Positions 7,073 to 30,466 of a stretch of DNA of 64,000 nt are shown one piece after another. Position numbers and translations under genes: made by a program. Positions within the stretch are counted from its first letter, which is position 1, and each line of letters opens with the position of its first letter. The notes under the pieces were generated by a model. It ran no database searches. It was not told the origin of the DNA and saw nothing but the letters and a program-made list of their open reading frames with translations. Origin of the DNA: Promethearchaeati archaeon SRVP18_Atabeyarchaeia-1 (lineage in GTDB: Archaea > Asgardarchaeota > Atabeyarchaeia > Atabeyarchaeales > Atabeyarchaeaceae); the NCBI GenBank assembly GCA_037308085.1, contig CP147779.1, forward strand, positions 1,888,001-1,952,000, given 5' to 3'.

Positions 7073-8884
7073 TCATGTATGAGAAGACTTTATCCTGCTT
7101 GCCATCTCGTTGCCGATAGTCTCTTCACGTGCCTTCAGAAATTCGTCGTAATTATTGTTCTTCATAGCATCGTAAGCTCTCTCTTCAATTAAGTGCGTTT
7201 TGAGAACAATCTTCACTTTTTCCTCCGAGCCCAGTTTTTGTTTCATGAGATCTATGTATTTGGATGGTTTCTTGTTTTGTATGATGCTATTGTTTGTTGA
7301 TTCTTGAATCAAAGTTCTGTTCAGTATAGAGTTTTCTTTGGTGAGGGTGATTCCTGATTTCTTTGGAAATAGATGATGATCGTTCAATTTGACAAGCTCG
7401 ATTGACTGTCCATTATAGAAGTCCAGCGCCCCTTTTAGGGCTATCAAATTGAGTATCGCCTTGTATATGGCACCTTTCGAGGTGTCTCTCAAATTTATCT
7501 CTCTTATTCGGCTTTCAGCTTCCTTGACTACTTCAGGCACTCTTAAGTTGTCTCCAAACCAGTCCCTAACTTGGTCAAAATCCTGTTTTATGGCTGTATC
7601 ACTTGCTCCTGCATATCTTTCTGTGAATATAGAACTCCAATACCAAGTGTCCAACTTCTTGAAGTCATTAGGAGCCTTGCAATGTTCAAGTATTGCCGCC
7701 AATGTTGCTACTACAGGCCTGTATGGTAATAGGTTTGGTCTGATAACGCCATATCCAGTCTGGGTGTTTTGTAGTCTTCTCAAAGAATGATTGAGCAAAC
7801 TACAAGATGAGTTCCAGTTGTCCTTGTCAATTTTGAACACTTTTGAGTTCACTAGAACTTTCTTCTTCACTTCTAGAGGATTGGGTTTTTGACGCAAAGC
7901 CATAATTTGAAGTATGATTTTTGGGTATTCCTCATCATCTTCTTCGGAGAACTTATTCACTTCACTTTCTGTGTCATCGAAATACTCTTTCCACCAATCT
8001 CTGAGGTTTATTTTCTGTTTGAAGAATACGGCGGTGGCAAGAGCAAACACCGAAAGCTCCACGCCTGTTCTATTAATCCTCTCGAATATCTCTGCGACCT
8101 CATAGAACTGTTTGTTTTCAAGAGTCAACGATGGGATTTTGAAACCAAACCAATGATTGAAAATATTTCTTATGGTCGCTTTTCTCTCTTTGATCTCGCC
8201 CCAAGGTTTGCTCTTCTTAGAGATGTAGTCTCCAAAATCCTCCAACCAGCTCTCTAGTTCGGAACGTGCTCCTAAGTTGGCAAAGGGTATCCGTCCATTT
8301 TCGTAGCAATATTGCTTGAATTCCTTCTTCATTAACAAATTCCCAAAATTGCCAGCCCAGTCTAGCAAGTCCTTGAAAGAGTATTTCTTAGCCCCCGACC
8401 CCATGTCTACTTCCATGTTTTTTGTTCTGTCATTTTCCGATATTGATTCGATCGAATCTTCCCAATCTTTTTGGGCGAGTCTTTCGTTGACCTTTACAAA
8501 ATATCGGATAGGGTAAGCTGCCCCTTTAGGTTCAACCTTTGGGGGACTGTAGAGAGCGTAGAACAAGGCAGTCAATCTTTGCTGTCCATCGAGCACCGCT
8601 CTTTCAACATTTTTCTCCTCTGGTTCTGATGGTAACTTTGTGTTGACTTTTTCTACTCCCTCAAAATACCGAACTCCAAAATCAAGGGTTTCAGCACGCC
8701 TTAAGAAAAGAAGGGTGCCGACGAAATAGCCGTTTAGAACTGAAACTAATAGACTTTTTATGTCAGGATTTGCCCACACAAAACTCCTTTGAAATTCCGG
8801 AAGGACACACTTTCCTTCACAGATTTCTCTAATTGGTCCTAGAGCTTCCTCAAGTTTCGGATAGGGTTCAGCCATAACACTCAC
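7073..8884 (-). CDS. DUF262 (GmrSD-like, ParB-like NTPase) protein with C-terminal DUF1524/HNH-like region; putative modification-dependent restriction enzyme
   Basis: LPEFQRSFVW, VLDGQQRLTAL, FERINRTG, C-terminal DHHLFP...N..N; visibly AT-richer than flanks. Confidence 0.9.
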   Translation of the reverse strand: MSVMAEPYPKLEEALGPIREICEGKCVLPEFQRSFVWANPDIKSLLVSVLNGYFVGTLLFLRRAETLDFGVRYFEGVEKVNTKLPSEPEEKNVERAVLDGQQRLTALFYALYSPPKVEPKGAAYPIRYFVKVNERLAQKDWEDSIESISENDRTKNMEVDMGSGAKKYSFKDLLDWAGNFGNLLMKKEFKQYCYENGRIPFANLGARSELESWLEDFGDYISKKSKPWGEIKERKATIRNIFNHWFGFKIPSLTLENKQFYEVAEIFERINRTGVELSVFALATAVFFKQKINLRDWWKEYFDDTESEVNKFSEEDDEEYPKIILQIMALRQKPNPLEVKKKVLVNSKVFKIDKDNWNSSCSLLNHSLRRLQNTQTGYGVIRPNLLPYRPVVATLAAILEHCKAPNDFKKLDTWYWSSIFTERYAGASDTAIKQDFDQVRDWFGDNLRVPEVVKEAESRIREINLRDTSKGAIYKAILNLIALKGALDFYNGQSIELVKLNDHHLFPKKSGITLTKENSILNRTLIQESTNNSIIQNKKPSKYIDLMKQKLGSEEKVKIVLKTHLIEERAYDAMKNNNYDEFLKAREETIGNEMASRIKSSHT

Positions 8885-11004: not shown

Positions 11005-12768
11005 TCATGGAGGGCATTTCTGTGACAACTCAATCATCCTGTATACCAACCCTACTGTTGCAGAGAACATAGTCATCACATTACATCGCTCAGCTTTGGT
11101 CAGATCTTCGAACCATTTGAAGGAATCGCTTCCCTTATCATGCTTCTGAGCGTTGATGAATAAGTCCTGAAGCGCTTGTATTGTCACACCTAATTCCGGA
11201 TTTCGTCTCGTCTCTTGTGGGTCCGTTGAGGAGCCGCTTATCGTCAATTTTCGAGTCGAATGAGAAATTACTTTTTCCCACCCATATGCGGCTTTGGAGA
11301 GACCAAATATTTCATTAGTGCTCAGACCAGTCTTCTTCTTGAGTAGCTCCACAATCTTATCCAGCATGCTTGTTTCAGGCTGTAGCTTTCCTTCCGGCGT
11401 GAGCTTGTCGAAGTCGCTTCTTACAGGTTTGGGCAAAAGACCTAACATACTCTTCTGCAGCTCCTTTGCTTTGGCTAGATCATCTTCTTCAGGCAGTTTC
11501 TTCTTGATCTCGGCTTCCAGTGTCGCAACTTCCTTAGCAGCTTGTTTGCACTTGTCATCTATGACCTGCTTATGAGGCTGAAGCGCAGGGTCTGTTGCGA
11601 AACTTCTGCCGCTACTCATAGCTTTCTTTGCTTTCTCAAGACATTTCTTGGCTGAATTGGTATTTCCCTTTGCCAAATGGTGCTTTGCCTTCTCGATCGA
11701 TTTCGCCTGGTTCTTATCACTTTGGTACCGATTACTGATCTGGAACTCATCCACGAAACTACCAACCTGCTGGAAGAACGGAGCAACAAGCTCGGTACTC
11801 GGCACAAAGTTGTTCCTTGCTGCATTCTCAACTATCTTCGGAGTAACTATGTGGATCTCTCCATATTGCCATTCACTATGCCCACTTGAGAGGTTCTCTA
11901 TGAAATGTTCATCACCGATAGTGAAACCCTTCTTCTTGAAAAAGATGCCCTTGTTCGGCTCGCCTAGTTCCTTATTCTCCTTGTTTGTCAGAAACCAGCC
12001 GAAGGCCACAATTTCGCCGTTTACCTTGAACTCCTTGGGGACAAGATCATTCACAAGGAATATATCGACATCGTCAGGCGGCCTGGATATCGGGTCGCCT
12101 TCAAACTCAATCACAACTTCAGGTAGCTCAACGTCGTGCTCTTTCAGGTAATCGTTCACCTTGTCGGCAAGCAAGAATTTCTTGTTGAAGGGTGCGGGAA
12201 CAGTTCGAGAAAGGTACTTGATTATCTTCTCTTTCTGGAACATAGATTTATGTGTTGTCAGGATTGAGCAAAGTCTTACAACCGTGAAGTGATCTTTGAC
12301 AGACTCTCCTGAGTCAAGATTTGTTTCCTCGATTTCCCCCGTTGACTCTGATAACACATCGGCTGCCGATCTATTGGTTCCATAACTTTGGCGCAGCTTC
12401 TTGCAATCTATTTCTATTCTCAGTTTCTTCTCATTCTTCTTCTTGGTTGTTATAACGATCTTCTCGCAGACTGGGACGCCGCTCCAGATGCCGATACCTC
12501 TCCACCCAACATTTTCAGGTGGCTTGTACGATAGTCCAACGCTCAAAGCCTCTTTCAGCTTGGCTTTATTCATTCCGCTGCCATCGTCGTGAATGACCAG
12601 ATCAAGTGATTCTGGACTCTTAGTCTCGAAGTAGATCTTCACCTTCTTTGGATCGGCGTCCAGACTGTTCTGGACATATTCCCTCAGACAATTCAGATTA
12701 TCAGAATAGAGGCCTTCTGTGATAGCTTCAAGTAGCTTTGCACCAAAATTGTCAATCTCAAACTTCAC
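11005..12768 (-). CDS. GHKL (HSP90/MORC-like, HATPase_c) ATPase with C-terminal helical domain
   Basis: LREYVQNSLDA, IHDDGSGM, GWRGIG Bergerat-fold motifs, then GEIHIV..NAARNNF (S5-like) and a coiled region. Confidence 0.9.
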   Translation of the reverse strand: MKFEIDNFGAKLLEAITEGLYSDNLNCLREYVQNSLDADPKKVKIYFETKSPESLDLVIHDDGSGMNKAKLKEALSVGLSYKPPENVGWRGIGIWSGVPVCEKIVITTKKKNEKKLRIEIDCKKLRQSYGTNRSAADVLSESTGEIEETNLDSGESVKDHFTVVRLCSILTTHKSMFQKEKIIKYLSRTVPAPFNKKFLLADKVNDYLKEHDVELPEVVIEFEGDPISRPPDDVDIFLVNDLVPKEFKVNGEIVAFGWFLTNKENKELGEPNKGIFFKKKGFTIGDEHFIENLSSGHSEWQYGEIHIVTPKIVENAARNNFVPSTELVAPFFQQVGSFVDEFQISNRYQSDKNQAKSIEKAKHHLAKGNTNSAKKCLEKAKKAMSSGRSFATDPALQPHKQVIDDKCKQAAKEVATLEAEIKKKLPEEDDLAKAKELQKSMLGLLPKPVRSDFDKLTPEGKLQPETSMLDKIVELLKKKTGLSTNEIFGLSKAAYGWEKVISHSTRKLTISGSSTDPQETRRNPELGVTIQALQDLFINAQKHDKGSDSFKWFEDLTKAERCNVMTMFSATVGLVYRMIELSQKCPP

Positions 12769-19502: not shown

Positions 19503-20060
19503 TTACTTCTTGTAGCCGTTGATGTAGGCGAACTGCTCGAAGAGGAGCCTCTCCGGTCTCTGCTTCTCGCCGAGCCTCTGCTTCTCTGAGAGTACGGGGC
19601 TTATTGCGTCGGAGTGTTTTCCGACGTTGACGAGCGTGATGACTATCATGTCGGCAGGGATGCCGAGGACCAGCTTGACTTTCTCCTCATCGTATCCTGC
19701 GACGGGATGCGCCACGAGACCCAACTCTGTGGCTCGAAGTATGAGGAGTGCAGTTGCCATGCCCGTGTCGAACAGGTAGTATATTCGGTCTCCAATCACG
19801 CAGTCGAGTTCCTTCTTGCTGACTACCGCTATGATCATCGACGAGGCCCTCATCCACTCGTTCCCCCTATTGAAAGTGGAATGCAGCTTCTTCAGGACTT
19901 CTGGGTCGTAGACGAAGACATATCTCCAGGGCTGGAAGTTGTTACATGAAGGCGCCAGCCTCGCGGATTCAGCCAGATCCCGTACCAAATCATCTGTTAT
20001 CGGGACGGGATCAAGCGAGCGGTAAGCTCTCCTTTCACTAATTGCCTGATTCACATCCAT
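19503..20060 (-). CDS. Nitroreductase family protein
   Basis: RRAYRS, ARLAPSCNNFQPWRY, DTGMA..LRATELGL. Confidence 0.9.
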   Translation of the reverse strand: MDVNQAISERRAYRSLDPVPITDDLVRDLAESARLAPSCNNFQPWRYVFVYDPEVLKKLHSTFNRGNEWMRASSMIIAVVSKKELDCVIGDRIYYLFDTGMATALLILRATELGLVAHPVAGYDEEKVKLVLGIPADMIVITLVNVGKHSDAISPVLSEKQRLGEKQRPERLLFEQFAYINGYKK

Positions 20061-20174
20061 ACGTTGATTCCTCCTCTCAGCTAATCAGTTTATGATGTGA
20101 TTATCATACTCAAAAATAAGCATTTGGGAATCGTGGCGCGGGCACTAGTAGAGTGCGCTCTTCACGGTATCCCC

Positions 20175-20687
20175 CTACGGTCGAAATACTCGCGCGCCAT
20201 GTCTGCTCACGAGGGAGTTGTTGCAGAGAAGCCTTTTGGAAGGTAGGTCAAGAAGCATTATTCCTGTCTCCCTCTTTGCCTGAGCTTTAAGCAAGCTAAC
20301 TACGCCTTCCTCGAAGCCAGATTCAGACACGTAGACTATCCACGACCACTTAATCTCATTGTCAGCCATGTAGCTCTCGGCGGCAGCCACCAGATTCCGC
20401 AGTTGCTCGACGGGCGCTCTTCCTCCTCCTCTATGGGACAGAACCAAGGCAAGGGTTTCCCAGCGAGGTGCGGTCCAAGACCACATCCTTGAGAGTAGTA
20501 CGCCTTTGACAGCCATATTCCCCCTGGCAAGAAGATCAACCTTTACGTCGCCGACTTTCTGGTCTCTGGACGAGGAGTACCAGGAACTTATCGCCTTGCC
20601 TTTACTGAATATTCTTTTCTCGGCAAAGTTGATGTATTCATCTATGTTCAACGGATCCCCTCTCTTGACTAAGTATGATTGTGGCAT
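20175..20687 (-). CDS. Hypothetical alpha/beta protein, possibly restriction-endonuclease-like fold
   Basis: 170 aa ORF; VDLLARG...WIVYVSESGF...GIMLLDL pattern. Confidence 0.55.
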   Translation of the reverse strand: MPQSYLVKRGDPLNIDEYINFAEKRIFSKGKAISSWYSSSRDQKVGDVKVDLLARGNMAVKGVLLSRMWSWTAPRWETLALVLSHRGGGRAPVEQLRNLVAAAESYMADNEIKWSWIVYVSESGFEEGVVSLLKAQAKRETGIMLLDLPSKRLLCNNSLVSRHGARVFRP

Positions 20688-20904
20688 GTGATGGCTTGTT
20701 TAGGCGAGATCGGATGCATTCATGGCCTCATATGAGAATCACCGTTCTAAAAAGCATTACTAATTATGACGCGGGTTCTACAAATCACCCATTTGTGAGA
20801 AGGCAACTTGTCCGACAGGTACCTCGAATGCGGAGTTTTCCTGAATCGGTTTCGCCTAGGCCGAAAATAAAAAAAAAGAAGGGAATTCTTGACGATGTGT
20901 TGCC

Positions 20905-22683
20905 CTACTCTGGCGGGATCTCGGAGTAGATGGCGCCAACGTCGATTCCGCGTCTCTTGTTTCGCAACTTGAAGGCACCGTATACTATAAGGCCGATGGC
21001 AAATGTAGCAAGGATCATGACCGACTCCCAGAAGGGCGCGTCAACCATGCCATAGTAGCCTGCGACAATAGGATCAACTGTGAATATGTAGAAGAGCATG
21101 GCTACCAGCATGAACACCCAGAAGAAGGTGCCAATCCAGCCAAAGACCTTCAACGCAGGAACTTTACGTGGCTTCGAATGATCCTCTGAAGAAGCCGCTC
21201 CGGCAATCGAGAAGATTACCCCTATGGCGCCGATCAAGGTGAGGCCGATTCCTATGAAGAGCATGGACGCCGATGAGATGGCTATCGCTATGCCGAACGC
21301 TATTGCCAACAATGAGATCAAAAAGCCTACGCCGAGTGCGTTGCCTGTCGTTGTTTCCCACTCGAGCTTAGTACCCTTGTCGTATGCGGACTTGAATTTG
21401 CCAATGAACGTCAAGCCGGCGACGCATATGAATAGGTACGTGAAGCAGTCGATGAAAGTTATGAAGACCAATGAGCCCCAAGCCGTCAATGCGCTGAAGA
21501 ATACTCCCGGGATTGCTACGATGCCACAGATGAGTGCGGACCACAGTGGACTGTGGAACCTATCACTGACTTCAGCGAACTTCTCAGGGAATTGACGATC
21601 AAATGACCACGCGAATGTCGATCTTGTAGCTATCAGGAAGAATGGCGGCAAGTCATTCAGAAGCCATAGCGCACCAGTGATCGATATGAAGATAGATAGA
21701 ATGGGTATCGAGTAGGTGTAGACAGCTGCGAACAGCGGCAATTGTGCGGGGGCTGGACCTCCAACGACATTGTACGCATAGAGGAATTCTTCTCCAACAG
21801 CTCTGGCCAGTCCTCCGGTGTACACTACGAACAGCAGAATTATGAGTCCCATACCACCGATGAGTGAGAGTACCATGTTCTTCTTCGGGTTCTTGACTTC
21901 TCCTCCAACGTAGGACGAAGCGTAGAAGGCGGAATACGCGAAGATTATGCCTGGGAGTGCTGCAAAGCTGAGGACGAAGTCTGGCGTGTAGGGTACGGCG
22001 CTTGCTGCAATCGTCGCGTATGAGCCTGCTCCAAAGACTGCGTTCCAGTATGTTGGAAGGTCTCCTGCGGTATGTATCAGAAGCGCGGCGATAGTAAAGA
22101 CGCTTCCAACCAGTGGGATAATGAATAGTGCTTGTACTACGCGTCCCCATATATTGGCACCGAGTGCTGCTAGAAGGGTAATTACCACTGTCAATGCGAC
22201 CCCGAGCCAGATCGAAGGCCATATGTCTTGGAAAAGTAGACCCAGGTTTACGAGTGCGCCGTTGTTGTAGATGGCACCTGCTATCTTGAAGCTAGTTCCC
22301 CAGAAGTATATGTCATAGTTGGCAAGTAGTCCCACTGAGAGGGCGATTGATACCCACGATCCCCAGCTTGCCAGGAAGCCTACTGATGGGCTGACTGCTC
22401 TGCTCATGATTACGTAGGGTCCGCCCGATCTGGGCATTGCTGAGGACATGATGCCAAGGCATATCGCTGAACAACCGAAGGGTATTGCCACCAATAGGAC
22501 CATTGCTAGTGGACTTACGGCGTTGATTCCGGCGGCCGATGTCCATCCGTAGGCTTGGACGGCGAAAGAGTTTATTCCAGCTCCAATAACTGCGCTCATC
22601 ACCATCGCGAGTGCTGTAAACCAGCCGATCTCCCGAACCAGTCCGGTTGCTTCTCTAACGAAGACCTGTTTTCCTTTGGACAT
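20905..22683 (-). CDS. APC family amino acid permease
   Basis: VFVREATGLVRE, AMPRSGGPY, GGEVKNPKK, R..FAWSFDR.FP, C-terminal YSEIPPE; many TM helices. Confidence 0.9.
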   Translation of the reverse strand: MSKGKQVFVREATGLVREIGWFTALAMVMSAVIGAGINSFAVQAYGWTSAAGINAVSPLAMVLLVAIPFGCSAICLGIMSSAMPRSGGPYVIMSRAVSPSVGFLASWGSWVSIALSVGLLANYDIYFWGTSFKIAGAIYNNGALVNLGLLFQDIWPSIWLGVALTVVITLLAALGANIWGRVVQALFIIPLVGSVFTIAALLIHTAGDLPTYWNAVFGAGSYATIAASAVPYTPDFVLSFAALPGIIFAYSAFYASSYVGGEVKNPKKNMVLSLIGGMGLIILLFVVYTGGLARAVGEEFLYAYNVVGGPAPAQLPLFAAVYTYSIPILSIFISITGALWLLNDLPPFFLIATRSTFAWSFDRQFPEKFAEVSDRFHSPLWSALICGIVAIPGVFFSALTAWGSLVFITFIDCFTYLFICVAGLTFIGKFKSAYDKGTKLEWETTTGNALGVGFLISLLAIAFGIAIAISSASMLFIGIGLTLIGAIGVIFSIAGAASSEDHSKPRKVPALKVFGWIGTFFWVFMLVAMLFYIFTVDPIVAGYYGMVDAPFWESVMILATFAIGLIVYGAFKLRNKRRGIDVGAIYSEIPPE

Positions 22684-22808
22684 TCCCTCTGCTTCTCTCC
22701 TCTGTTCTTTTCTCCTTATTGGAGATGAGTAATAGTATGCTCAAGGGGTTCATATATATACTTTTACTTTTGCCAGGGAAAAGCAGTTACTTTGAGCACC
22801 TCATTTAC

Positions 22809-23172
22809 CATTCTGCCGCAGGGGGGCCCACGCCCTTAAGGGGTGGGATGAACTGCGGCGGCTAGAATGTTCGTTTAAGTATCTCTGTTCCATATGTTTC
22901 TTTGGACCCTGGGGCGAGACCGCGCAGGGTGGCGCCCCCGATGCAAAGCCTGAGTCTCTGTTTCCCAGGGCGGATGGTGGTCTCCGAGCACGGAGACGGG
23001 AAGCGTAACCCACCGCGCCTGGCGAGGTGAGCGGGGCTGGAAAAATGTAGCGCGCGAGCCCGGGAGCTCAACTTCCGTAGCAGACTTTGCGAGACCAGCG
23101 GCCCGGCGACGGGCGGAGAAGAAGTGAACGAAACGGAAAGCCCACCGGCTTCAAGCCGTGGGAGGAGGCTAC
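22809..23172 (+). mobile_element. Non-autonomous IS200/IS605-type element (no ORF) with left- and right-end hairpins and an omegaRNA-like body
   Basis: LE hairpin 22826-22848 is 22/23 identical to the LE at 60254-60276; RE hairpin CCCAC..GTGGG at 23141-23162 followed by AGGAGGCTAC; TTAC at 22805-22808. Confidence 0.75.
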
Positions 23173-24524
23173 TCGACGGTTTCATACCACTGGGATTTCT
23201 CGCCTACCTCTGCCCGTTTCTGCCACTTCTTTGTCTTTGGTTCATCGTCCAATTGCTTCAGAAAATCCGCGAGCCTTGCTAACACTTTTCCATTTTCGTC
23301 CTCCGGAAGGCGATACTCCGCTAACATCTGGGACATTTTCTCCGTGTTCATGGATAGAGTCTTGTACAATCCCCAGTCATCTGAGCACAGTTTGGCGATG
23401 TACTTCACATCTATCTTTCCAGGGTCTCCACTCCCAAGTTCGTGATCCAGCATGATTGCCGTCGTGTCGCGAGCGTCTCTCTCGCTGAATTTCACTATCT
23501 GGAGCTTTGTCATGAGGAGGTCGGCGAGCGGTATCGTGTACTCATCCAGTTCAAGTCTGTCCTTGAGGTCAAGCTTGTGGCACATCTCGAACGCGTCAAG
23601 GTAGACATCAACGCCGATCCCAGTCTTCTCATCAAAGAATTTCAGCCTCTTTCTTCCGTGAAGCGCATTGAACTTCTTGATAGGCTCGAAGCCCAGGCTC
23701 GCAAGCATCTTCTTTATTGCGATATCGTCCTTTGCATGGGCGAAGAGGTCTACGTCCGGATAGTCTCTGGCTAGGGGCGGCTGACTCGCGCTGGGGCAAC
23801 GCATCGCTACTGCTACGCCGCCAAGTACCCTCAATATGCGGTTCTCCATCCTTGCGTCATCGACGATTCTAGTCGCCAAGTTAACGATCTCAGGCGGCGG
23901 AGGCGAGGCTGGGGGTTGTGACTGAGGCGGAGAAGTGGGAGTGGTCTCCTCCTCGGACGGTTGGATGTCGGGGGGAGGCTGCGGCTGCGCAGGAAGCAGA
24001 GGCGTAGGTTGGGGCTGCACCTCTTCTATGATTGGCTCTGGCTGGGCCGTGGCCTCGGGTTCGGGTGGAGGCGGAGGTTGAACTCTCTCAACGGGTCGTT
24101 CCAGCTGAACAGAGGTGGGAGTCGCCTCTTTGGGGGCTTGGGGAGGTGGGGCGGCCGCCTGGGCTCTCGAATCCTCGAGGGCTATGACTTCGTCTATCAG
24201 GCTGCCGTACTTGTCGGCCAGAGTTCCCATTTTGGACAAGACTATGCCAACTTTCTTGTCGGTCAGGGTTATGAGGACCGCCTTGTTCGAGACCCTCGAA
24301 GCCACGATTGTCTTGACAGGGTCCAAGGTTAGTGTCAGGTTGTCGCCTTTCCCCATGATTAGAATGTTATGGTAGAAAGGCGAGACTCTACTCATGGTAG
24401 CCTTGCTCAGATCCGTGTAAAGGACCTTGCCTTGGCTAGATAGCAGAGCTAGCTCAACTATGTCTGGAACCCCAAGGGTTCTAAATTCCTTCTTAAGAAC
24501 ATCCACTATGCTGAGGAGACTCAT
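23169..24524 (-). CDS. Roadblock-like domain + Pro-rich linker + Pol-beta-type nucleotidyltransferase-like domain
   Basis: N-terminal ~115 aa helix-strand pattern (ELALLSSQGKVL...VLITLTD), P/Q/E linker, then LGGVAV...RDYPDVDL...VDVYLD. Confidence 0.75.
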   Translation of the reverse strand: MSLLSIVDVLKKEFRTLGVPDIVELALLSSQGKVLYTDLSKATMSRVSPFYHNILIMGKGDNLTLTLDPVKTIVASRVSNKAVLITLTDKKVGIVLSKMGTLADKYGSLIDEVIALEDSRAQAAAPPPQAPKEATPTSVQLERPVERVQPPPPPEPEATAQPEPIIEEVQPQPTPLLPAQPQPPPDIQPSEEETTPTSPPQSQPPASPPPPEIVNLATRIVDDARMENRILRVLGGVAVAMRCPSASQPPLARDYPDVDLFAHAKDDIAIKKMLASLGFEPIKKFNALHGRKRLKFFDEKTGIGVDVYLDAFEMCHKLDLKDRLELDEYTIPLADLLMTKLQIVKFSERDARDTTAIMLDHELGSGDPGKIDVKYIAKLCSDDWGLYKTLSMNTEKMSQMLAEYRLPEDENGKVLARLADFLKQLDDEPKTKKWQKRAEVGEKSQWYETVE

Positions 24525-24586
24525 GTTTGAATGCCCCCAAATTCATCTCGGCTATTTAGAGACTACCATAAGATCGGGTTTGCGGA

Positions 24587-25324
24587 TTAGCGTCTCACTT
24601 CCTCAACAGTTTCATACCAGGGAGAACTCTCGCCTCTGGCGGCCCGCATGCGCCACCTCATGGATTTTGGTTCTTCCTCCAGTCTTCTGAGAAACGATGC
24701 CAACTTGGACTTGATTCTACGAGTGTCATCATCTGACAAGCCGTAATCGGCCACCATCTTAGATATCTTCTCCGCGTTCATGGACAGCGTCTTCCAAAGC
24801 CCCCAATCGCCGGAGCACAGCTTCGCTATGTAGTCCAAGTCTATCTTGTCAGGGTCTCTGCTCCCATAATCATGGTCTTTCAGGATGACTACGATATCCC
24901 TAATATCCTTCTCATTGATCTGGACGACCTGGAGCTTTGTCATGAGGAGGTCGGCGAGCGGTATCGTGTAACTATCCAGTTCAAGTCTGTCCTTGAAGTC
25001 GAACTTGTGGCACATCTGGAAGACATCAAGAAATATATCGACGTCGATTTTCTCCTTGGTGTTCGAGAACTGCAGTCTCTTCTTTCCATGCAGAGCGTTA
25101 AATCTCTTGTTGGGCTCGAAGCCGAGGCCTGTGAAGAGCTCCTTGATGGATTTGTCCTGTTTTGCATGCCCAACGAGGTCTATGTCGGCATAGTCCCTGA
25201 TCAGATTCCTATGTTTTGCGCTGGGGCATCGCATTCCTATAGCCGTGCCACCGAGTGCCCGCAGAACAACTCTGCTCTTCTGGGCCTCGTCAATAATCCT
25301 TGTTGCTTGTTGGACGATGTCCAT
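24587..25324 (-). CDS. Pol-beta superfamily nucleotidyltransferase-like protein
   Basis: LGGTAI...RDYADIDL...VDIFLD; paralog of the 23169 C-terminal domain. Confidence 0.8.
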   Translation of the reverse strand: MDIVQQATRIIDEAQKSRVVLRALGGTAIGMRCPSAKHRNLIRDYADIDLVGHAKQDKSIKELFTGLGFEPNKRFNALHGKKRLQFSNTKEKIDVDIFLDVFQMCHKFDFKDRLELDSYTIPLADLLMTKLQVVQINEKDIRDIVVILKDHDYGSRDPDKIDLDYIAKLCSGDWGLWKTLSMNAEKISKMVADYGLSDDDTRRIKSKLASFLRRLEEEPKSMRWRMRAARGESSPWYETVEEVRR

Positions 25325-25406
25325 CTAGCTCACACTCGCATGGGCCCACAAGTGAGATATTGTTGCCCCTTAAGACGGAGGGCGCAAAGCCTCTCTCGCT
25401 TTCTCA

Positions 25407-26351
25407 CTAGCCTTCAGTTCTCCAGTACTTGGAGATCTTATCCTTCTCCAGGTCAACGATGAAGCCTCTGAGGATCCCTTCACCATACTCAGAGCCCGGG
25501 TTGACACAAAGGGTTTTACCTATCTTGGCGATTCCGGGGGATTCGTGAACGTGCCCGTGAAGTCCAAGTTTCGGCTGGTACTGCTTGATCAGATCGTAAA
25601 CGGCCTTACTCCCTACGGGAATCATGACTTGTTGTCCACCTTGAACTACGGGGGTGAATTTCTCGTCAAGCTTGGGCGCCGCGTCAAGACTGGACTTGTA
25701 CGGTGGAGGATGCAGGTTTGCGATGAGATGACCGTAATCCTCCGTTAGCTTGAAGAGCCTCTCAAATCGTTTCATGAGCCTATCCTCAGGCTCCTCCCTA
25801 GCGGTATTCCACGGGGTCGGATTCACCCAGCCAGAGGTAATCATGAGGTGATTTTTGTCGATCTCGACCAGTTTCTCTTCAGGGTCTATTATCTTGTTGC
25901 TTGATTCTAGGATGGGGTCAACTATGAATCTGTCATCATTTCCAGGGGATACGAAGACTTTCACACTTCCATCGAGTTTCCGTTCCGCTATCTCCATCCA
26001 TCTGTTAATACCTTCACCGATGAGCTTATCAAAGAGCCTGCTGAGGTCAGCGGAGTCATTCTGAAGGTGCTCATATTCCTTTGTGCCACACATATACGGG
26101 TAGTAGCCCGAAGACATGACCTTCGCTTTGAATTCATCGACTTCCTGCCTAGACTTCATAACCTCGTCTCTGCCGAATATGTGTGCCTCGTATGTTCCGC
26201 CGTCAGCTTCGACGATTGGTACAACAACCTTGCCGGTGATGTCTCCTCCCATTATAGCCACGTCTGCCTTGTAGAAATTCCCGGCGTTGAGAAACTTCTT
26301 CCAGCAGACTTCGCTGCCATGAATGTCGGACGTGAAGTATATTCTTGTCAA
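25407..26351 (-). CDS. Calcineurin-like metallophosphoesterase
   Basis: SDIHG, GGDITG, PGNDD, HPPP, HGHVHE. Confidence 0.9.
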   Translation of the reverse strand: MTRIYFTSDIHGSEVCWKKFLNAGNFYKADVAIMGGDITGKVVVPIVEADGGTYEAHIFGRDEVMKSRQEVDEFKAKVMSSGYYPYMCGTKEYEHLQNDSADLSRLFDKLIGEGINRWMEIAERKLDGSVKVFVSPGNDDRFIVDPILESSNKIIDPEEKLVEIDKNHLMITSGWVNPTPWNTAREEPEDRLMKRFERLFKLTEDYGHLIANLHPPPYKSSLDAAPKLDEKFTPVVQGGQQVMIPVGSKAVYDLIKQYQPKLGLHGHVHESPGIAKIGKTLCVNPGSEYGEGILRGFIVDLEKDKISKYWRTEG

Positions 26352-26733
26352 AGCATGCTCTCCTTGATGGGAGACTACTCTTAAAGTGGTATTTCAACTT
26401 TTTCGTATTTCTGCACCCAGTGCCCAACTGATTATCGCGCATCTTCTGATCGGCGCTGCCGTCTCGACTCCTTCGCAAGGCGCGGTGATTTCCCCCGTAA
26501 GCGCTTTGGTCCCACTCTTTCCGCGGAATAGAATTCAGCTTGCTCGATTCGAAGTGACGCGTCAGGCTCACCGGTGGCAAGTTCATTGATTTCCCTCAGA
26601 ACCTCGTCGCCACAAAAGCTCCTTCGACCCATAATTCAGTCATTATCTCCTCGTTTAGGAAACTGGAGGTCTTCAGAAAAAGGCGACTACGCCTTTGCAG
26701 GAATCAGTCACTCCGAATGAGTGCCTTGGGAAT

Positions 26734-28110
26734 CTAGCCGGAGACGGTTAGGTCATCGAGCACCATACTAGGTATCTTGCCTTCACTGAGAAGCCGCACG
26801 TCTTGTCCTACCAGTTGTACTTTCTTTAATGCATCAAGGATGTTGCCAGCTATGCTCACGGGTTCAAGAGGATAGGTGATCTCTCCTTTCGCGATTAGAT
26901 AGGCGTTAGGCGCAACCACGCTGAACTCACCTGTTGTCAGGTTCGACATGCCGATCCCTATTGGCCTGTCGGTGACAAGAATTCCTTCGCCGATTTCGGC
27001 TGCTAGTTCGTCGATTCGCTTTGCTCCTGGTATCACCACAAGGTTAGTTATCGAAGTGCCTGGTAGCTGAAGGAATGGTTCGGGCCAGTCGCGGCTGGCG
27101 TTTCCCGTGCTCTCCCTATTCTGCCTCGCCGACGAGTAGCCGTTATATATGTACGTCTTCAGGACGCCTCTATCGATTATCTTGGTCGTTCGCCTTGGGA
27201 TTCCTTCGCCATCTACCTTCGAAGTTGCGATCCCTTCTGGCAGCTGACCATCATCAATGGCGGTGATGTCTGGGCTTGTTACCTCCTCTCCGACCTTGCC
27301 CTCGTAGCGACTTCTACCATCCATGGCGTTCCCTGCATCTGTAGCAGAGCCAAGCGTATCTTTGAGCAGTTCTCCGATCGATACGTTTTCCCAAACGACA
27401 CTACTTTTGAATGTTTGGCTCAACGGCTTTGCCCCCAACATCTTAAGGGAGTTCTTGGCCGCGCTTTCGCCAATTTGACTGAAGTCTGTGAGTCTGCGCG
27501 AAACAAGGGAGTCCGTCCCAGTCTTCTGCCTACCTTCTTCAGCGGTTGTGCACCTAGCGCTTGCCTCAATGTAAGACGTTTTTGAGGACGCCTCTATTCC
27601 CCTTGAGCTAGATACGGCGAAGCATGCCCTGTTGACCAAGAGAGTGCCATAGAAGGATTTCACCCGCTTGTCGAGTGCGAGAGCCCTCTTCGCGAACTCG
27701 CTGACTGATGCGAGCGCGTCATCCTCAGAGAACTCTGTGATGCTGCTGTCAATTGTGCCATCTTCTGAGGCTAGTTTGACTGGATCTGGCAGATGCTTGA
27801 AATTCGGGTCTGCCGGGCGTATTCGTGCGACTGCCAGGGCTTCTTCAACCACGGCATCGATCAGTCTCTTGTCGGTTCCAGTGGCGGCGGCGAACCCTAC
27901 CTTACCTTCTACCGCCACGCGGATTCCCACGCCAGAGGGCGTTCCACATCGGGCCTCAGCAGTCAGCTTTCTGATATTGACCGAGATCATATCAGCTTTC
28001 GAGGAGAGGGCTTCAGCCTCGTTCGCGCCTTTCTGCAAAGCTCTCCTGACTGCGAGGTCAGACAAGGCTAGCAGTTCGCTTTGAATCAGGTCCAATTCCC
28101 GGGTCTTCAT
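26734..28110 (-). CDS. pmbA: TldE/PmbA family protein
   Basis: GIRV..GKVGFA, DGEG, STGNA, TGEFSV, IAGN; lacks HExxxH. Confidence 0.9.
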   Translation of the reverse strand: MKTRELDLIQSELLALSDLAVRRALQKGANEAEALSSKADMISVNIRKLTAEARCGTPSGVGIRVAVEGKVGFAAATGTDKRLIDAVVEEALAVARIRPADPNFKHLPDPVKLASEDGTIDSSITEFSEDDALASVSEFAKRALALDKRVKSFYGTLLVNRACFAVSSSRGIEASSKTSYIEASARCTTAEEGRQKTGTDSLVSRRLTDFSQIGESAAKNSLKMLGAKPLSQTFKSSVVWENVSIGELLKDTLGSATDAGNAMDGRSRYEGKVGEEVTSPDITAIDDGQLPEGIATSKVDGEGIPRRTTKIIDRGVLKTYIYNGYSSARQNRESTGNASRDWPEPFLQLPGTSITNLVVIPGAKRIDELAAEIGEGILVTDRPIGIGMSNLTTGEFSVVAPNAYLIAKGEITYPLEPVSIAGNILDALKKVQLVGQDVRLLSEGKIPSMVLDDLTVSG

Positions 28111-29692: not shown

Positions 29693-30466
29693 CTAGTCTG
29701 CTATCTTGCTGAATTCAGTCTTGGCAGCTCCACAGACAGGGCAAACCCAGTCGTCTGGCAGTTTCTCAAAAGGCGTCCCAGGTTTCACGCCTGAATCAGG
29801 GTCGCCTTTCGCTGGGTCATATACGTACCCGCAAACGGAGCACTGGTATCTTGCCATCTTTGCGGGGGCAGCTGAAGCTGACGGCTTGGTTGCTTTGGGA
29901 ACAGGTGCTTTCTTAGACACTTCCTCAACCTCCTCTTTTCTCTGCGATTTTATATATGTTGCAGCGGTTTCAGGGGTGTACCCCTTCTTAACTTGATGGT
30001 AGTAATCATAAGTCATTGGCTCTGCCTCTTCATTGATCATTTGGGCATCAACAACTTTTCCCAGGAAAACCACGTGGGTTCCGCAGTCGAGGCTGCCTGT
30101 GACCTGCGCCTCGAAATAGCCAACGCCATAATCAAGAACTATTGGCGCGCCAGTCACCCCAGTTTTGTGCTTAACGTTCTTGAACTTGTCTATGTCCCTG
30201 CCTGACTTGAAGCCAAAGGTTCCAATGAAAGTCATTGGGGTTTCTGTAGAGAGAATAGTGGCAGCGTACACCTTGCTAGCTTGAATGTAGCTGTAAGTCA
30301 GGTTCTTCTTATTGATGCTTCCAACGATCTCGGGAGGGTCACCAGTGACTTGGAAGATCGTGTTGCAGATCTGCCCATTTATCTTCTTGTCCATTGTTGA
30401 AGAGACCACGAACATTCCGCAACAGATCTTCCGAAAAGCATCAGTATTCATGGTGTTGAGCCTCAT
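29693..30466 (-). CDS. Flavin reductase-like domain fused to rubredoxin (high-molecular-weight rubredoxin type)
   Basis: [21 protein letters not shown]-terminal [10 protein letters not shown]...[12 protein letters not shown]. Confidence 0.9.

Follow-up and report, generated by a model that had tools for sequence, protein, structure and literature searches.

Four genes lie together on the minus strand at this locus of Promethearchaeati archaeon SRVP18_Atabeyarchaeia-1, which was studied within a window comprising the whole 64,000-nucleotide stretch of DNA analyzed. In the direction of transcription they encode a metallophosphoesterase (MPE; 25407..26351, 314 aa), a stand-alone nucleotidyltransferase-like protein (NTase A; 24587..25324, 245 aa), a second NTase-like domain fused to a Roadblock-type domain (23169..24524, 451 aa) and an APC permease (20905..22683, 592 aa), with 82, 62 and 485 nt between consecutive genes by their coordinates. 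The co-directional arrangement described in the original prediction agrees exactly with four minus-strand entries in the ORF list and, judging from the family sizes and matches of the MPE, NTase and permease, these ORFs are real genes. They need not share a transcript, since the permease gene stands behind a 485-nt spacer (22684..23168, minus strand) with a TATA-like element, 'aaaagtatatatat' (about 22751-22770), about 70 nt upstream of the permease ATG, and it appears to be under its own promoter. In RNA-library run X1 the contigs reach from 20912 to 22706, ending 23 nt upstream of the same ATG, and Rfam gave no match to the spacer at E<=1. No choline or amine catabolic gene adjoins the cluster in the window, as judged by Pfam and inspection of the neighboring ORFs.

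The enzymes and the permease

The MPE is a cytoplasmic, binuclear enzyme of the calcineurin type from a large family (7438 relatives at E<=1e-20 among 8000 scored), matching PF00149 at 23.8 bits (cut-off 21.5) and PF14582 at 26.4 bits, below the cut-off of 28.2. The metal ligands that were said to be kept are invariant in an alignment of 28 sequences (D9, H11, D37, N138, H214, H267 and H269). Between motif II (D37) and motif III (GNDD, 137-140) the same alignment reveals a family-specific insert of ~100 residues with invariant residues of its own, Y84 and W118. Searched against the PDB, the family profile finds aq_1956 (4.9e-5) and LpxH, a UDP-sugar pyrophosphatase (3.9e-4), followed by weak matches to the cNMP phosphodiesterases MPPED2 and Rv0805; all of these nearest matches are nucleotide-ester hydrolases.

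NTase A is a Pol-beta-fold protein (AF2 pLDDT 96.6) whose family comprises 2035 cluster representatives at E<=1e-3; its match to PF14907 reaches 18.4 bits (cut-off 31.2). The anticipated GG..DxD..D motif is present as G25-G26, D47xD49 and D96, and a 63-sequence alignment shows G25, D47, D49 and D96 to be invariant, together with W174, K220, W224 and R227 in the C-terminal helical domain. The NTase-like domain of the fusion (23169..23888, minus strand; about residues 213-451 plus the stop) is 59% identical to NTase A over 240 residues and, as claimed for its motif, retains all 13 family-invariant residues. On sequence, both NTase domains and the MPE look catalytically intact.

Aligned with VIA-align, the model of NTase A lies nearest to MenT1 (Z 12.1, 170 residues aligned), ANT(2'')-Ia (Z 11.9) and LnuA (Z 11.1), with JHP933 also among the nearest solved folds (Z 10-12 for the group). 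By this modeled likeness the solved folds closest to NTase A belong to small-molecule or tRNA nucleotidyltransferases, and protein-modifying NTases (GlnE, GlnD, DrrA-type) are absent among the structural matches listed. That the best matches are MenT1, ANT(2'')-Ia and LnuA could mark the NTase as a MenT/AbiEii-like toxin, or as an antibiotic-modifying resistance enzyme, with no relation to the permease, and PADLOC does return AbiEii, though at an insignificant E of 0.009. With no antitoxin-like neighbor, and with an MPE and a permease as its partners across phyla in a catabolic context, we consider this extremely improbable.

The permease belongs to the APC superfamily (PF13520, 94 bits against a cut-off of 27, 1.3e-26, residues 19-470) and has about 13-14 hydrophobic segments, two of them past the Pfam core (hydropathy peaks including 523-541 and 555-573). 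It might be the effector of a second-messenger circuit, perhaps in osmolyte or amine uptake, with the NTase making a signaling nucleotide that the MPE degrades. The JGI name of the MPE relatives, 'Icc-related predicted phosphoesterase', and the weak profile matches to Rv0805 and MPPED2 fit this proposal; moreover, many of the likely cargos are compatible solutes, whose transporters are c-di-AMP targets. However, CD-NTase chains rank low against the NTase (CdnE Z 5.4, core only; Foldseek probability <0.9), PADLOC gives no CBASS-type match and neither Pfam nor hydropathy points to a nucleotide-sensor domain in the permease, making such a circuit quite improbable.

The Roadblock-NTase fusion

The first part of the fusion protein (24165..24524, minus strand; about residues 1-120) has the Roadblock/LC7 fold that had been predicted for it. 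Residues 1-125 are modeled by AF2 with a pLDDT of 89.1 and the topology a-b-b-a-b-b-b-a, and a Foldseek search of the PDB with this model yields 37 matches at E<=1e-3; among the matches listed, all are Roadblock-type chains, including an Asgard Roadblock protein (8yqk; E 1.3e-5, TM 0.63/0.71), MglB, LAMTOR and the C-terminal domains of Rag proteins. Pfam Robl_LC7 (PF03259) does not match the domain. The Pro/Glu/Gln-rich linker that follows, delimited by composition (23889..24164, minus strand; about residues 121-212), is as long and Pro-rich as described, with 32 Pro, 12 Glu and 12 Gln in 92 residues, and linkers of like kind occur in relatives P0002-P0014. In the tree, the fusion NTase domain, NTase A and the relatives' fusions form one clade (100/100), and the catalytic triad is intact in 9/9 Atabey-type fusions; one member of the Atabeyarchaeum family, G002, has the trio of MPE, NTase and permease without any fusion. 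The same genome encodes two Roadblock paralogues (58% and 36% identity) in which a C-terminal wHTH-like tail, pointing to transcription control, replaces the NTase. Regulatory-type fusions recur in the NTase family, the partners being Roadblock domains (of two sequence-unrelated types), IclR/MarR-type HTH, Fic and PRTase; two family members, P0041 and P0158, are named 'Roadblock/LC7/MglB family' by JGI. In three fusions (P0153, P0158 and P0101) one or two of the catalytic Asp are gone while the C-terminal invariant residues are kept, which suggests a sensor or binding role.

It had been proposed that the Roadblock domain provides an MglB- or Ragulator-like link to a small GTPase, coupling nucleotidylation to amino-acid transport. 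The matches to MglB, LAMTOR and Rag domains accord with this, as do the two sequence-unrelated types in which Roadblock is joined to the NTase family and the abundance of small GTPases in Asgard genomes, as described in PMC11291895. The genomic context gives the link no support, however: GTPase genes are missing from the cluster's surroundings in the window and from the sister genome's locus that encodes the fusion, and neither of the two Roadblock-wHTH paralogues has one as a neighbor, a Ras-family ORF coming no closer than 7 kb. Together with the paralogues' wHTH-like tail and the trio of G002, which does without a fusion, this renders a GTPase link very improbable.

A conserved unit among catabolic genes

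Linkage was assessed in 97 loci, 19 of them Asgard loci picked for MPE-NTase adjacency and 78 bacterial loci picked by the MPE alone, by strict clustering of the ORFs <=7 kb from the MPE. The permease family lies within this distance in 84/97 loci (13/19 Asgard and 71/78 bacterial) and the NTase family in 66/97 (47/78 bacterial), the bacterial loci not being independent, as 26/78 are Dormibacterota or 'Chloroflexi CF' with near-identical layouts. Among 86 MPE-permease pairs, 83 are co-directional, the permease is directly downstream in 74 and the gap is <=100 nt in 61. Within the phylum, the MPE occurs in 20 of 41 genomes; the NTase domain is matched in 18, each of which gives a strong match to the MPE as well (E<1e-50). 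Comparison of coordinates puts an NTase match no more than about 500 nt away from 22 of the 32 strong MPE places. Where the NTase is missing or distant at a Chloroflexota MPE locus, the family occurs elsewhere in the genome (5/5). Genome G025 has 7 MPE and 7 NTase places, and four of the five stretches fetched have an adjoining permease; such paralogous units are typical of substrate-specific transporter/enzyme sets, and cognate regulator pairs expand likewise. MPE, permease and NTase are an old, widespread unit, found in Asgard archaea, Chloroflexota, Actinomycetota, Dormibacterota, Acidobacteriota and Bacillota, of which the present cluster is an Asgard instance. Our literature searches found no paper describing it.

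A unit of this kind might also be a switch, in which the NTase would adenylylate or uridylylate the permease or a partner and so gate uptake, the MPE would remove the mark and the Roadblock copy would serve as input or adaptor. We take this to be an unlikely but serious possibility: the trio stays constant while the adjoining catabolic pathways change, the coupling of MPE and permease is tight, the trios duplicate jointly within genomes, and Roadblock, HTH and Fic domains occur as fusion partners of the NTase. The permease, however, lacks a sizeable cytoplasmic domain, its extra C-terminal part being hydrophobic, the nearest folds among the matches listed are not those of protein-modifying NTases, and we know of no calcineurin-type de-nucleotidylase of proteins. 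Nor did the literature searches bear out the claim that Pol-beta NTases and calcineurin-like phosphoesterases are established writer/eraser pairs, as no such paper was found and no such pair is known to us.

Genes flanking the unit vary by clade and are mostly those of choline, betaine, amino-alcohol or amine catabolism. Neighbors in the bacterial loci are aldehyde dehydrogenase (40 loci), DAO+GCV_T dimethylglycine-dehydrogenase-like proteins (34), GntR (32), choline/ethanolamine kinase (27), Fe-ADH (23) and GMC oxidoreductase (9); RACo (8), MttB (6) and a corrinoid protein (6) also recur, in counts that include one or two Asgard loci. In 17 Asgard loci we find aldehyde:ferredoxin oxidoreductase (6), class-III aminotransferase (5) and MttB (2). 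Genes of the unit are also carried on plasmids of two cultured species, Halobellus limi (IclR, Fe-ADH, ALDH, MPE, NTase (34% identical) and APC) and Thermomicrobium roseum (GCV_T, APC and MPE). Because the unit stands among such genes across clades, its cargo is unlikely to be a standard amino acid; the proposed tie to amino acid transport thus holds for the APC permease, far beyond the source genome, and probably fails for the cargo. The same neighborhoods favor, for at least part of the cluster, the plain catabolic role that the original prediction had offered as its alternative.

Catabolism could be served by another arrangement, in which a phospho-amine or choline phosphodiester enters through the permease (of the phosphocholine, phosphoethanolamine or glycerophosphocholine type), the MPE alone frees the amino alcohol and phosphate, and the NTase is mainly a ligand-binding regulator. 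MPE and permease are indeed the tightest pair (84/97 loci, against 66/97 for the NTase), and the calcineurin-type esterases GpdQ, acid sphingomyelinase and ADPRibase-Mn act on choline/ethanolamine phosphodiesters. GbsAB-like Fe-ADH and ALDH genes adjoin the trio, and catalytically degenerate NTases are fused to HTH and Roadblock domains. Yet the invariance of the NTase triad in 63 ordinary members, as in the Atabey-type fusions, argues for catalysis, no phosphate-starvation context is seen, and the known route for phospholipid head groups, as described in PMC10132767, is hydrolysis outside the cell. We therefore regard this arrangement as rather unlikely.

The best reading, which we hold tentatively and somewhat short of an even chance, is that of a cargo-directed enzyme pair with the Roadblock copy as a predicted lineage-specific regulatory adaptor. 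The permease would take up an amine-type nutrient (of the choline, amino-alcohol or quaternary-amine class) or its phosphoester; the NTase would transfer a nucleotide from an NTP to a hydroxyl or phosphate of this small molecule, in the way that ANT(2'')-Ia and LnuA act on amine-rich antibiotics; and the MPE would split the nucleotide-linked ester so formed (or another phosphoester), which would either undo the mark or supply the downstream catabolic steps with a phosphorylated cargo. The NTase gene has been duplicated in the Atabeyarchaeum family, and one copy is tethered by the long Pro-rich linker to a Roadblock/LC7 domain, most likely a dimerizing or regulatory adaptor rather than a proven GTPase regulator, which possibly pairs with the two Roadblock-wHTH paralogues. 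The linkage, co-occurrence, paralogous units, neighborhoods, folds and invariant catalytic residues speak for such a pair, and from them we infer what class of cargo is involved, that the target is a small molecule and what the Roadblock domain does. Against it, glycine betaine and some other likely cargos lack a hydroxyl or phosphate that could be modified, 27 loci already encode a kinase of the choline kinase family, and constant enzymes beside varying pathways would equally fit permease accessories or regulators. The regulatory fusions of the NTase, three with catalytic Asp losses, also weigh against it, as do the absence of adjoining choline/amine genes here and the apparently separate permease promoter. 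Overall, the Roadblock fold, apparently intact enzymes and permease tie of the original prediction stand, whereas its writer/eraser precedent and GTPase link find no support and its amino-acid cargo is probably wrong.

Comparison with known systems

The families common to trio neighborhoods and to the GbsAB/BetAB routes from choline to glycine betaine and RMM-type amino-alcohol kinase/phospho-lyase loci are Fe-ADH, ALDH, GMC oxidoreductase, choline-kinase/APH, class-III aminotransferase, GntR/IclR and APC permease. To our knowledge, these pathways as described include neither an MPE nor an NTase of the trio kind, and the Atabeyarchaeia cluster differs from them in that catabolic genes do not adjoin it. 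The MPE shares a binuclear calcineurin-like site and a GNxD-type motif III with aq_1956 (Metallophos_3) and LpxH-type enzymes, but matches them mainly over the C-terminal motifs, the insert between motifs II and III being peculiar to its family.

The Roadblock domain has the a-b-b-a-b-b-b fold of Asgard Roadblock proteins (8yqk, 7f8m, 9jue), MglB and LAMTOR2/3 (Foldseek E 1.3e-5 to 1e-3) and, as in MglB, a long C-terminal helix; it differs from Roadblock/LC7 proteins in lacking a nearby GTPase gene and a PF03259 match, and in what follows it, a Pro-rich linker and an enzyme in the fusion and a wHTH-like tail in the paralogues. MenT1, of the AbiEii-type toxins MenT1/MenT3/MenT4, is the best overall fold match of the NTase (Foldseek E 5.6e-5), but TM-scores are modest (0.36-0.50), and the NTase has no antitoxin partner or toxin-antitoxin context. 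Like ANT(2'')-Ia (AadB; 153 residues aligned, rmsd 3.6) and LnuA (139 aligned, rmsd 3.2), whose substrates are amine-rich small molecules, the NTase combines a minimal Pol-beta core bearing the G-G...DxD...D motif with a subsequent helical domain, and its family profile weakly matches ANT(2'') (E 0.059). Identity is only 14-16%, however, the C-terminal helical domain is longer in the NTase family, and the NTase is partnered by an MPE and a permease, with no resistance context. By analogy only, the unit recalls amtB-glnK with GlnD, where dedicated accessory genes, one of them for a Pol-beta-type NTase, stay with the transporter gene and are duplicated along with it; the trio differs in having no PII-like protein, a calcineurin-type esterase instead of an HD domain as the remover, and an NTase fold closer to small-molecule enzymes.

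The four genes and their products

Four co-directional genes had been claimed for the cluster, and minus-strand open reading frames are found at exactly those positions, encoding a 314-aa metallophosphoesterase (MPE; 26351..25407), the stand-alone 245-aa Pol-beta-fold protein NTase A (25324..24587), a 451-aa fusion protein that joins a Roadblock/LC7-fold domain to an NTase-like domain (24524..23169), and a 592-aa APC permease (22683..20905), with intergenic gaps, in that order, of 82, 62 and 485 nt. A TldD/PmbA pair lies upstream, and genes for a 170-aa protein and a nitroreductase lie downstream. The 170-aa protein (20175-20687, minus strand, just 3' of the permease gene) has no match in Pfam, NCBIfam or PADLOC; its gene keeps the same position in G002, a genome of the same family (E 5e-56), and is not a part of the trio of MPE, permease and NTase found more widely. 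Within the window, no choline, betaine or amine catabolic gene adjoins the cluster and no small GTPase gene lies around it. A few kb away, minus-strand genes for a GmrSD-N-domain protein and a HATPase_c_3 protein (window 7073-8884 and 11005-12768) look like defence or restriction genes, and another minus-strand gene (window 29693-30466) encodes a flavin-reductase-like domain fused to a C-terminal rubredoxin.

The MPE matches PF00149 at 23.8 bits (cut-off 21.5) and has the DxH, GD, GNH(D/E)-type, H, GH and GHxH motifs that supply the metal ligands of calcineurin-like enzymes. In accordance with the original prediction that these ligands are kept, D9, H11, D37, N138 (in GNDD), H214, H267 and H269 are all invariant across 28 aligned MPE sequences. 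The MPE profile is closest to aq_1956 (4.9e-5) and then LpxH (3.9e-4), with MPPED2 and Rv0805 matched weakly, and by this profile comparison the enzyme resembles nucleotide-ester hydrolases. The permease belongs to the APC superfamily, its residues 19-470 matching the AA_permease_2 core (PF13520) with 94 bits where the cut-off is 27 (1.3e-26), and it has approximately 13-14 hydrophobic segments, two of which lie past the Pfam core. The 485-nt spacer between the fusion gene and the permease gene (22684-23168) is GC-rich, with a possible hairpin near 22815-22865 and a TATA-like element approximately 70 nt before the permease ATG; Rfam gave no match at E<=1 in 20000-27000, the spacer included. 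Since the corresponding gap in G002 is only 98 nt, the spacer and the fusion gene may have been acquired together. In the RNA-library run X1, three contigs are identical to 20912-22706, the permease reading frame plus 23 nt upstream, which indicates presence only, with no strand or expression level, and DNA carry-over is possible. Runs X8 and X9 have no contig over the stretch and the enzyme genes are uncovered in X1, which, as contigs were filtered and some dropped, means neither silence nor separate transcription.

NTase A scores 18.4 bits against PF14907 (NTP_transf_5), below the cut-off of 31.2, and the fusion protein gives no match to PF14907 at E<=0.1 nor to any other Pfam family; the NTase-like domains of the two proteins are 59% identical across 240 residues. 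The wider family is large, with 2035 cluster representatives at E<=1e-3, of which most are stand-alone proteins 245-270 aa long. In an alignment of 63 sequences (the window protein and 62 representatives chosen from 150 listed), the invariant residues are G25, D47, D49, D96, R113, K130, Q132, W174, G175, K220, W224, R227 and G231, and the fusion protein retains every one of them, catalytic motif included. The expectation that both domains keep GG..DxD..D is thus borne out (G25-G26, D47xD49, D96), and NTase A shows the Pol-beta superfamily motif hG[GS] ... [DE]x[DE] ... [DE]. Its AlphaFold2 model (pLDDT 96.6) comprises a Pol-beta NTase core and, C-terminal to it, a helical domain. The closest solved chains are MenT1 (Z 12.1), ANT(2'')-Ia (Z 11.9) and a Paracoccidioides NTase-like protein (Z 11.2), with LnuA (Z 11.1), JHP933 (Z 10.2) and DNA pol beta (Z 7.9) further off; Foldseek is concordant with these neighbours at modest TM-scores of 0.36-0.45. 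Judged by its modeled fold, the NTase resembles enzymes whose nucleotidylation targets are small amine-rich molecules or tRNA ends.

This resemblance extends to toxins and resistance enzymes, and such a role for the NTase seems barely credible: no AbiEi or MenA-type antitoxin gene is adjacent, as a MenT/AbiEii toxin-antitoxin system would have, the neighbours being the MPE, an NTase paralogue and the permease, and the AbiEii match reaches only E 0.009. A second-messenger circuit, in which the NTase would make a signal for the MPE to remove, is very unlikely. CdnE aligns with NTase A over the core only (Z 5.4), and PADLOC gave no CBASS model. A defence reading of the cluster was rejected because its PADLOC matches, AbiEii and PDC-S10 (3.5e-8 across 42 MPE residues), are weak or partial.

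A conserved unit of phosphoesterase, permease and nucleotidyltransferase

The three families lie within a few kb of one another in the window, and the same arrangement occurs in G002 and in G001, a genome of the same genus. In a survey of 41 genomes of the phylum, an NTase-domain match was found in 18, all of which also have a strong MPE match (E<1e-50); the MPE is present in 20, two of which, 84% and 76% complete, lack an NTase match. Coordinates place an NTase match within approximately 500 nt of 22 of the 32 strong MPE places, in every possible order and orientation. A permease relative occurs in 15 of 20 Asgard stretches, which were picked for MPE-NTase adjacency, and in the Asgard genome G025, with seven MPE and seven NTase places, the trio multiplies along with the permease.

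The unit extends well beyond the Asgard archaea. MPE relatives number 7438 at E<=1e-20 (among 8000 scored), and a scan with the MPE only returned 80 loci, two from Asgard relatives and 78 from bacteria (Chloroflexota, Actinomycetota, Dormibacterota, Acidobacteriota and Bacillota) at 34-46% identity; with window proteins as queries at E<=1e-5, an NTase relative was present in 54 of these 80 and a permease relative in 46. All reading frames up to 7 kb from the MPE were clustered strictly (BLASTP E<1e-25, coverage of 70% or more) in 97 loci, with two duplicate loci and one that lacks the MPE (L028) left out. A permease-family member occurs in 84 of these (13/19 Asgard, 71/78 bacterial), and an NTase-family member in 66 (47/78 bacterial). 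These counts, and those of the neighbour families given below, are not independent: 26 of the bacterial loci are from Dormibacterota or 'Chloroflexi CF' genomes with near-identical layouts, and several Asgard loci come from one genus or family. Of the 86 MPE-permease pairs, the two genes run in the same direction in 83, the permease follows directly downstream in 74, and no more than 100 nt separates them in 61. The permease is kept alongside the same two enzymes in thousands of genomes.

The MPE-permease pair is present in every sampled clade, and an NTase gene close to the MPE is rare in Anaerolineae (2/12) and Chloroflexia (0/4). These observations bear on a rather improbable reading, a phosphoester-nutrient route that would proceed via the MPE alone with the NTase as a sensor. 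In the genomes where the NTase is scarce near the MPE, its family was found elsewhere in all five tested, three times on the same contig at a distance of 8-26 kb.

The common theme of the trio neighbourhoods is the breakdown of choline, betaine, amino-alcohols and other amines. The recurrent families, mostly from bacterial members of the 97 loci, are aldehyde dehydrogenase (40 loci), dimethylglycine/sarcosine dehydrogenase-like DAO+GCV_T proteins (34), GntR/FCD regulators (32), the choline/ethanolamine kinase family (27), Fe-ADH (23), pterin-binding methyltransferase (10), GMC oxidoreductase (9), PurU (8), RACo (8, one Asgard), MttB (6, two Asgard) and a corrinoid protein (6, one Asgard); BMC shell proteins, an ammonium transporter, ETF, and PucR or IclR regulators occur at single loci. 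Across 17 Asgard loci, we found aldehyde:ferredoxin oxidoreductase at six, class-III aminotransferase at five, S-Me-THD-like genes with a racemase at three, and MttB, Fe-ADH, and TauE with a PLP enzyme at two each. Non-pyrrolysine MttB homologues of Atabeyarchaeia are described as likely quaternary-amine methyltransferases in the accessible text of PMC11291895. At a further Asgard locus (L037; G040:C7 ~134.1-137.2 kb), PylD-like, ATP-grasp (PylC-like) and radical-SAM (PylB-like) genes adjoin the APC-MPE-NTase unit, which suggests pyrrolysine biosynthesis beside an amine-uptake unit. Two cultured hosts make experiments feasible: Halobellus limi, whose plasmid NZ_CP031312 carries IclR, Fe-ADH, ALDH and MPE genes, then one for a 'hypothetical protein' with 34% identity to NTase A, then an APC permease gene, and Thermomicrobium roseum, with a plasmid encoding an aminomethyltransferase, APC, MPE and a nitrilase-related hydrolase. 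The two Halobellus limi enzymes have the accessions WP_103992469 and WP_160113950, and the Thermomicrobium roseum MPE has WP_012642672.

Roadblock domains joined to the nucleotidyltransferase

The N-terminal domain of the fusion protein had been predicted to be Roadblock-like and to lead into a long Pro-rich linker. The linker holds 32 Pro among 92 residues, and the AlphaFold2 model of residues 1-125 (pLDDT 89.1) has the a-b-b-a-b-b-b-a order of Roadblock/LC7 proteins (H3-16 E22-29 E34-37 H41-55 E62-66 E72-77 E82-88 H92-124). Foldseek against the PDB returned 37 matches at E<=1e-3, all Roadblock-type among the matches listed, the best being the Asgard Roadblock 8yqk (1.3e-5, TM 0.63/0.71), and MglB, LAMTOR and Rag C-terminal domains were also matched; profilin first appears at rank 44. 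Predicted fold and structural neighbours therefore agree on the assignment, and the same residues match no Pfam family, PF03259 (Robl_LC7) included, at E<=10.

Fourteen proteins with this N-domain were found in a search restricted to proteins of 248-790 aa. Nine, the window's own counted, are fusions of 418-465 aa, and the other five, of approximately 250 aa, have a C-terminal wHTH-like tail replacing the NTase. Two of the latter are encoded in the window's own genome, with N-domain identities of 58% and 36%, and consist of a Roadblock domain, a Pro-rich linker and a wHTH-like tail of approximately 70 aa. One paralogue adjoins a V4R-like gene and a divergent PadR/ABC-2 transporter operon, and the other sits between an ABC-2 transporter operon and a KaiC-like gene; both are on the minus strand, at G000:C1 ~2561.5-2562.3 kb (L002 1105-1863) and ~2473.2-2474.0 kb (L003 1099-1842). 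These proteins may form a lineage-specific family of Roadblock-sensor transcription factors. Elsewhere on this contig (~2466.7-2468.8 kb; L128 667-2829), an 8-oxoguanine DNA glycosylase gene is interrupted by a LAGLIDADG intein.

The original prediction tied the Roadblock domain to GTPase signalling, and on this point the gene neighbourhoods do not bear it out. No GTPase gene lies beside the cluster or adjoins either Roadblock-wHTH paralogue, the nearest Ras-family reading frame being 7 kb from one of them. In G001, the trio is on one contig and the fusion on another, where the genes beside it (L028) encode a Fe-ADH, an M20 peptidase, a glycosidase-like protein and part of a permease, and none of them a GTPase. 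A GTPase-linked circuit, for which the predicted fold and its MglB and Rag neighbours would speak, is on this evidence highly improbable, and the Asgard Roadblock domain is found here in a setting other than the expected GTPase one. The Roadblock-bearing NTase is best seen as a lineage-specific adaptor. Because its nearest Roadblock paralogues carry wHTH-like tails, it is a reasonable idea that heterodimerisation with them would couple the NTase to transcription control.

In G002 the gene order of the window recurs with a single NTase (MPE, NTase, permease, 170-aa gene, nitroreductase), and no Roadblock-NTase fusion was found there with the query used. A metagenome scan with the fusion protein yielded a single locus, whose NTase relative (43% identity, residues 200-448) is a plain one and adds no fusion context. 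A maximum-likelihood tree of 41 NTase domains unites the 13 rows of the Atabeyarchaeum-family lineage in one clade (100/100), within which, with rooting not established, the stand-alone type is nested between two fusion clades. This nesting suggests that the fusion is old in the lineage, with possible loss of the domain from the stand-alone copy. In the same tree, whose root is not established, the Atabeyarchaeum-family NTases group with bacterial representatives and other Asgard NTases form a separate clade (100/98); there are hints of NTase transfer between bacteria and archaea.

Three further proteins, P0041, P0153 and P0158, have the same NTase family behind a differing N-terminus, which we take as a lead to a second Roadblock-like type: P0041 and P0158 carry the JGI label 'Roadblock/LC7/MglB family', P0153 matches PF03259 at a sub-threshold E of 0.0015, and for residues 1-120 of P0041, 24 of the 30 nearest named Atlas clusters are Roadblock/LC7 (score 0.92, a lead). 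HMM and hhalign comparison of the Atabey-type Roadblock domain with these three N-termini detected no similarity, so the two fusion types probably arose independently. The P0041-type fusion was not found in 151 sampled Chloroflexota genomes. P0041 retains every invariant NTase residue; P0153, P0158 and P0101, the last an IclR/MarR-type HTH fusion whose DxD has degenerated to DxN, have lost one or two catalytic Asp and keep W174, G175, K220, W224, R227 and G231. An AhpC peroxiredoxin fused to an NTase-like domain was also found (proteins with extra domains are P0101, P0119 and P0134), and Atlas clusters join the NTase fold to Fic (56 members, Actinomycetota) and, in archaea, to a phosphoribosyltransferase (92 members).

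Candidate functions and known systems

The most likely model, which we hold tentatively, is an enzyme pair directed at the permease's cargo. The permease would import a choline or amino-alcohol-type compound, the NTase would nucleotidylate it, and the MPE would cleave the nucleotide-linked ester, either reversing the mark or leaving a phosphorylated product. This model draws on the invariance of the catalytic residues in both enzymes, on what the NTase and MPE resemble, and on the multiplication of the trio with the permease in genomes. Against it, flanking pathways vary, some likely cargos have no modifiable group, kinases are already encoded in 27 loci, and the NTase domain also occurs joined to Roadblock, HTH and Fic, in some cases with its active site degenerate. 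These fusions suggest regulation, as would be expected of a protein-nucleotidylation switch acting on the permease, which we regard as doubtful.

A broader and speculative proposal, also doubtful as a whole, is that the trio could be a transporter-dedicated nucleotidylation switch shared from Asgard archaea to soil bacteria, in which the NTase would write and the MPE erase a mark on permease or cargo at entry, gating amine or osmolyte uptake. Roadblock domains would be input modules recruited in the two fusion types, in Atabeyarchaeum relatives linking uptake to Roadblock-wHTH transcription factors or GTPases.

If the pair does put a nucleotide on cargo or permease, this would be a new principle of transport-coupled chemistry. 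Knowing what the two enzymes do would add a missing piece to the picture of how microbes of soils and sediments, Asgard archaea among them, import and process nitrogen compounds of the choline type and others, several of them precursors of methanogenic substrates. The joining of Roadblock to the NTase in two sequence-unrelated types is itself a testable hint that the enzyme is regulated or regulatory.

Our literature search found no description of the MPE-APC-NTase trio or the Roadblock-NTase fusion, and none of what the enzymes do. Roadblock/LC7 is among the eukaryotic signature domains reported for Atabeyarchaeia, and the accessible text of that study makes no mention of this cluster (PMC11291895). 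PF14907 appears, in the part of PMC8942020 available, in a phosphonate cluster, and the route for phospholipid head groups described in the accessible part of PMC10132767 involves extracellular hydrolysis and other transporters. What is new is the Asgard (Atabeyarchaeum-family) instance of the trio, its duplicated NTase and the two Roadblock fusion types; as a transporter operon with dedicated enzymes, the trio itself is a known kind of arrangement.
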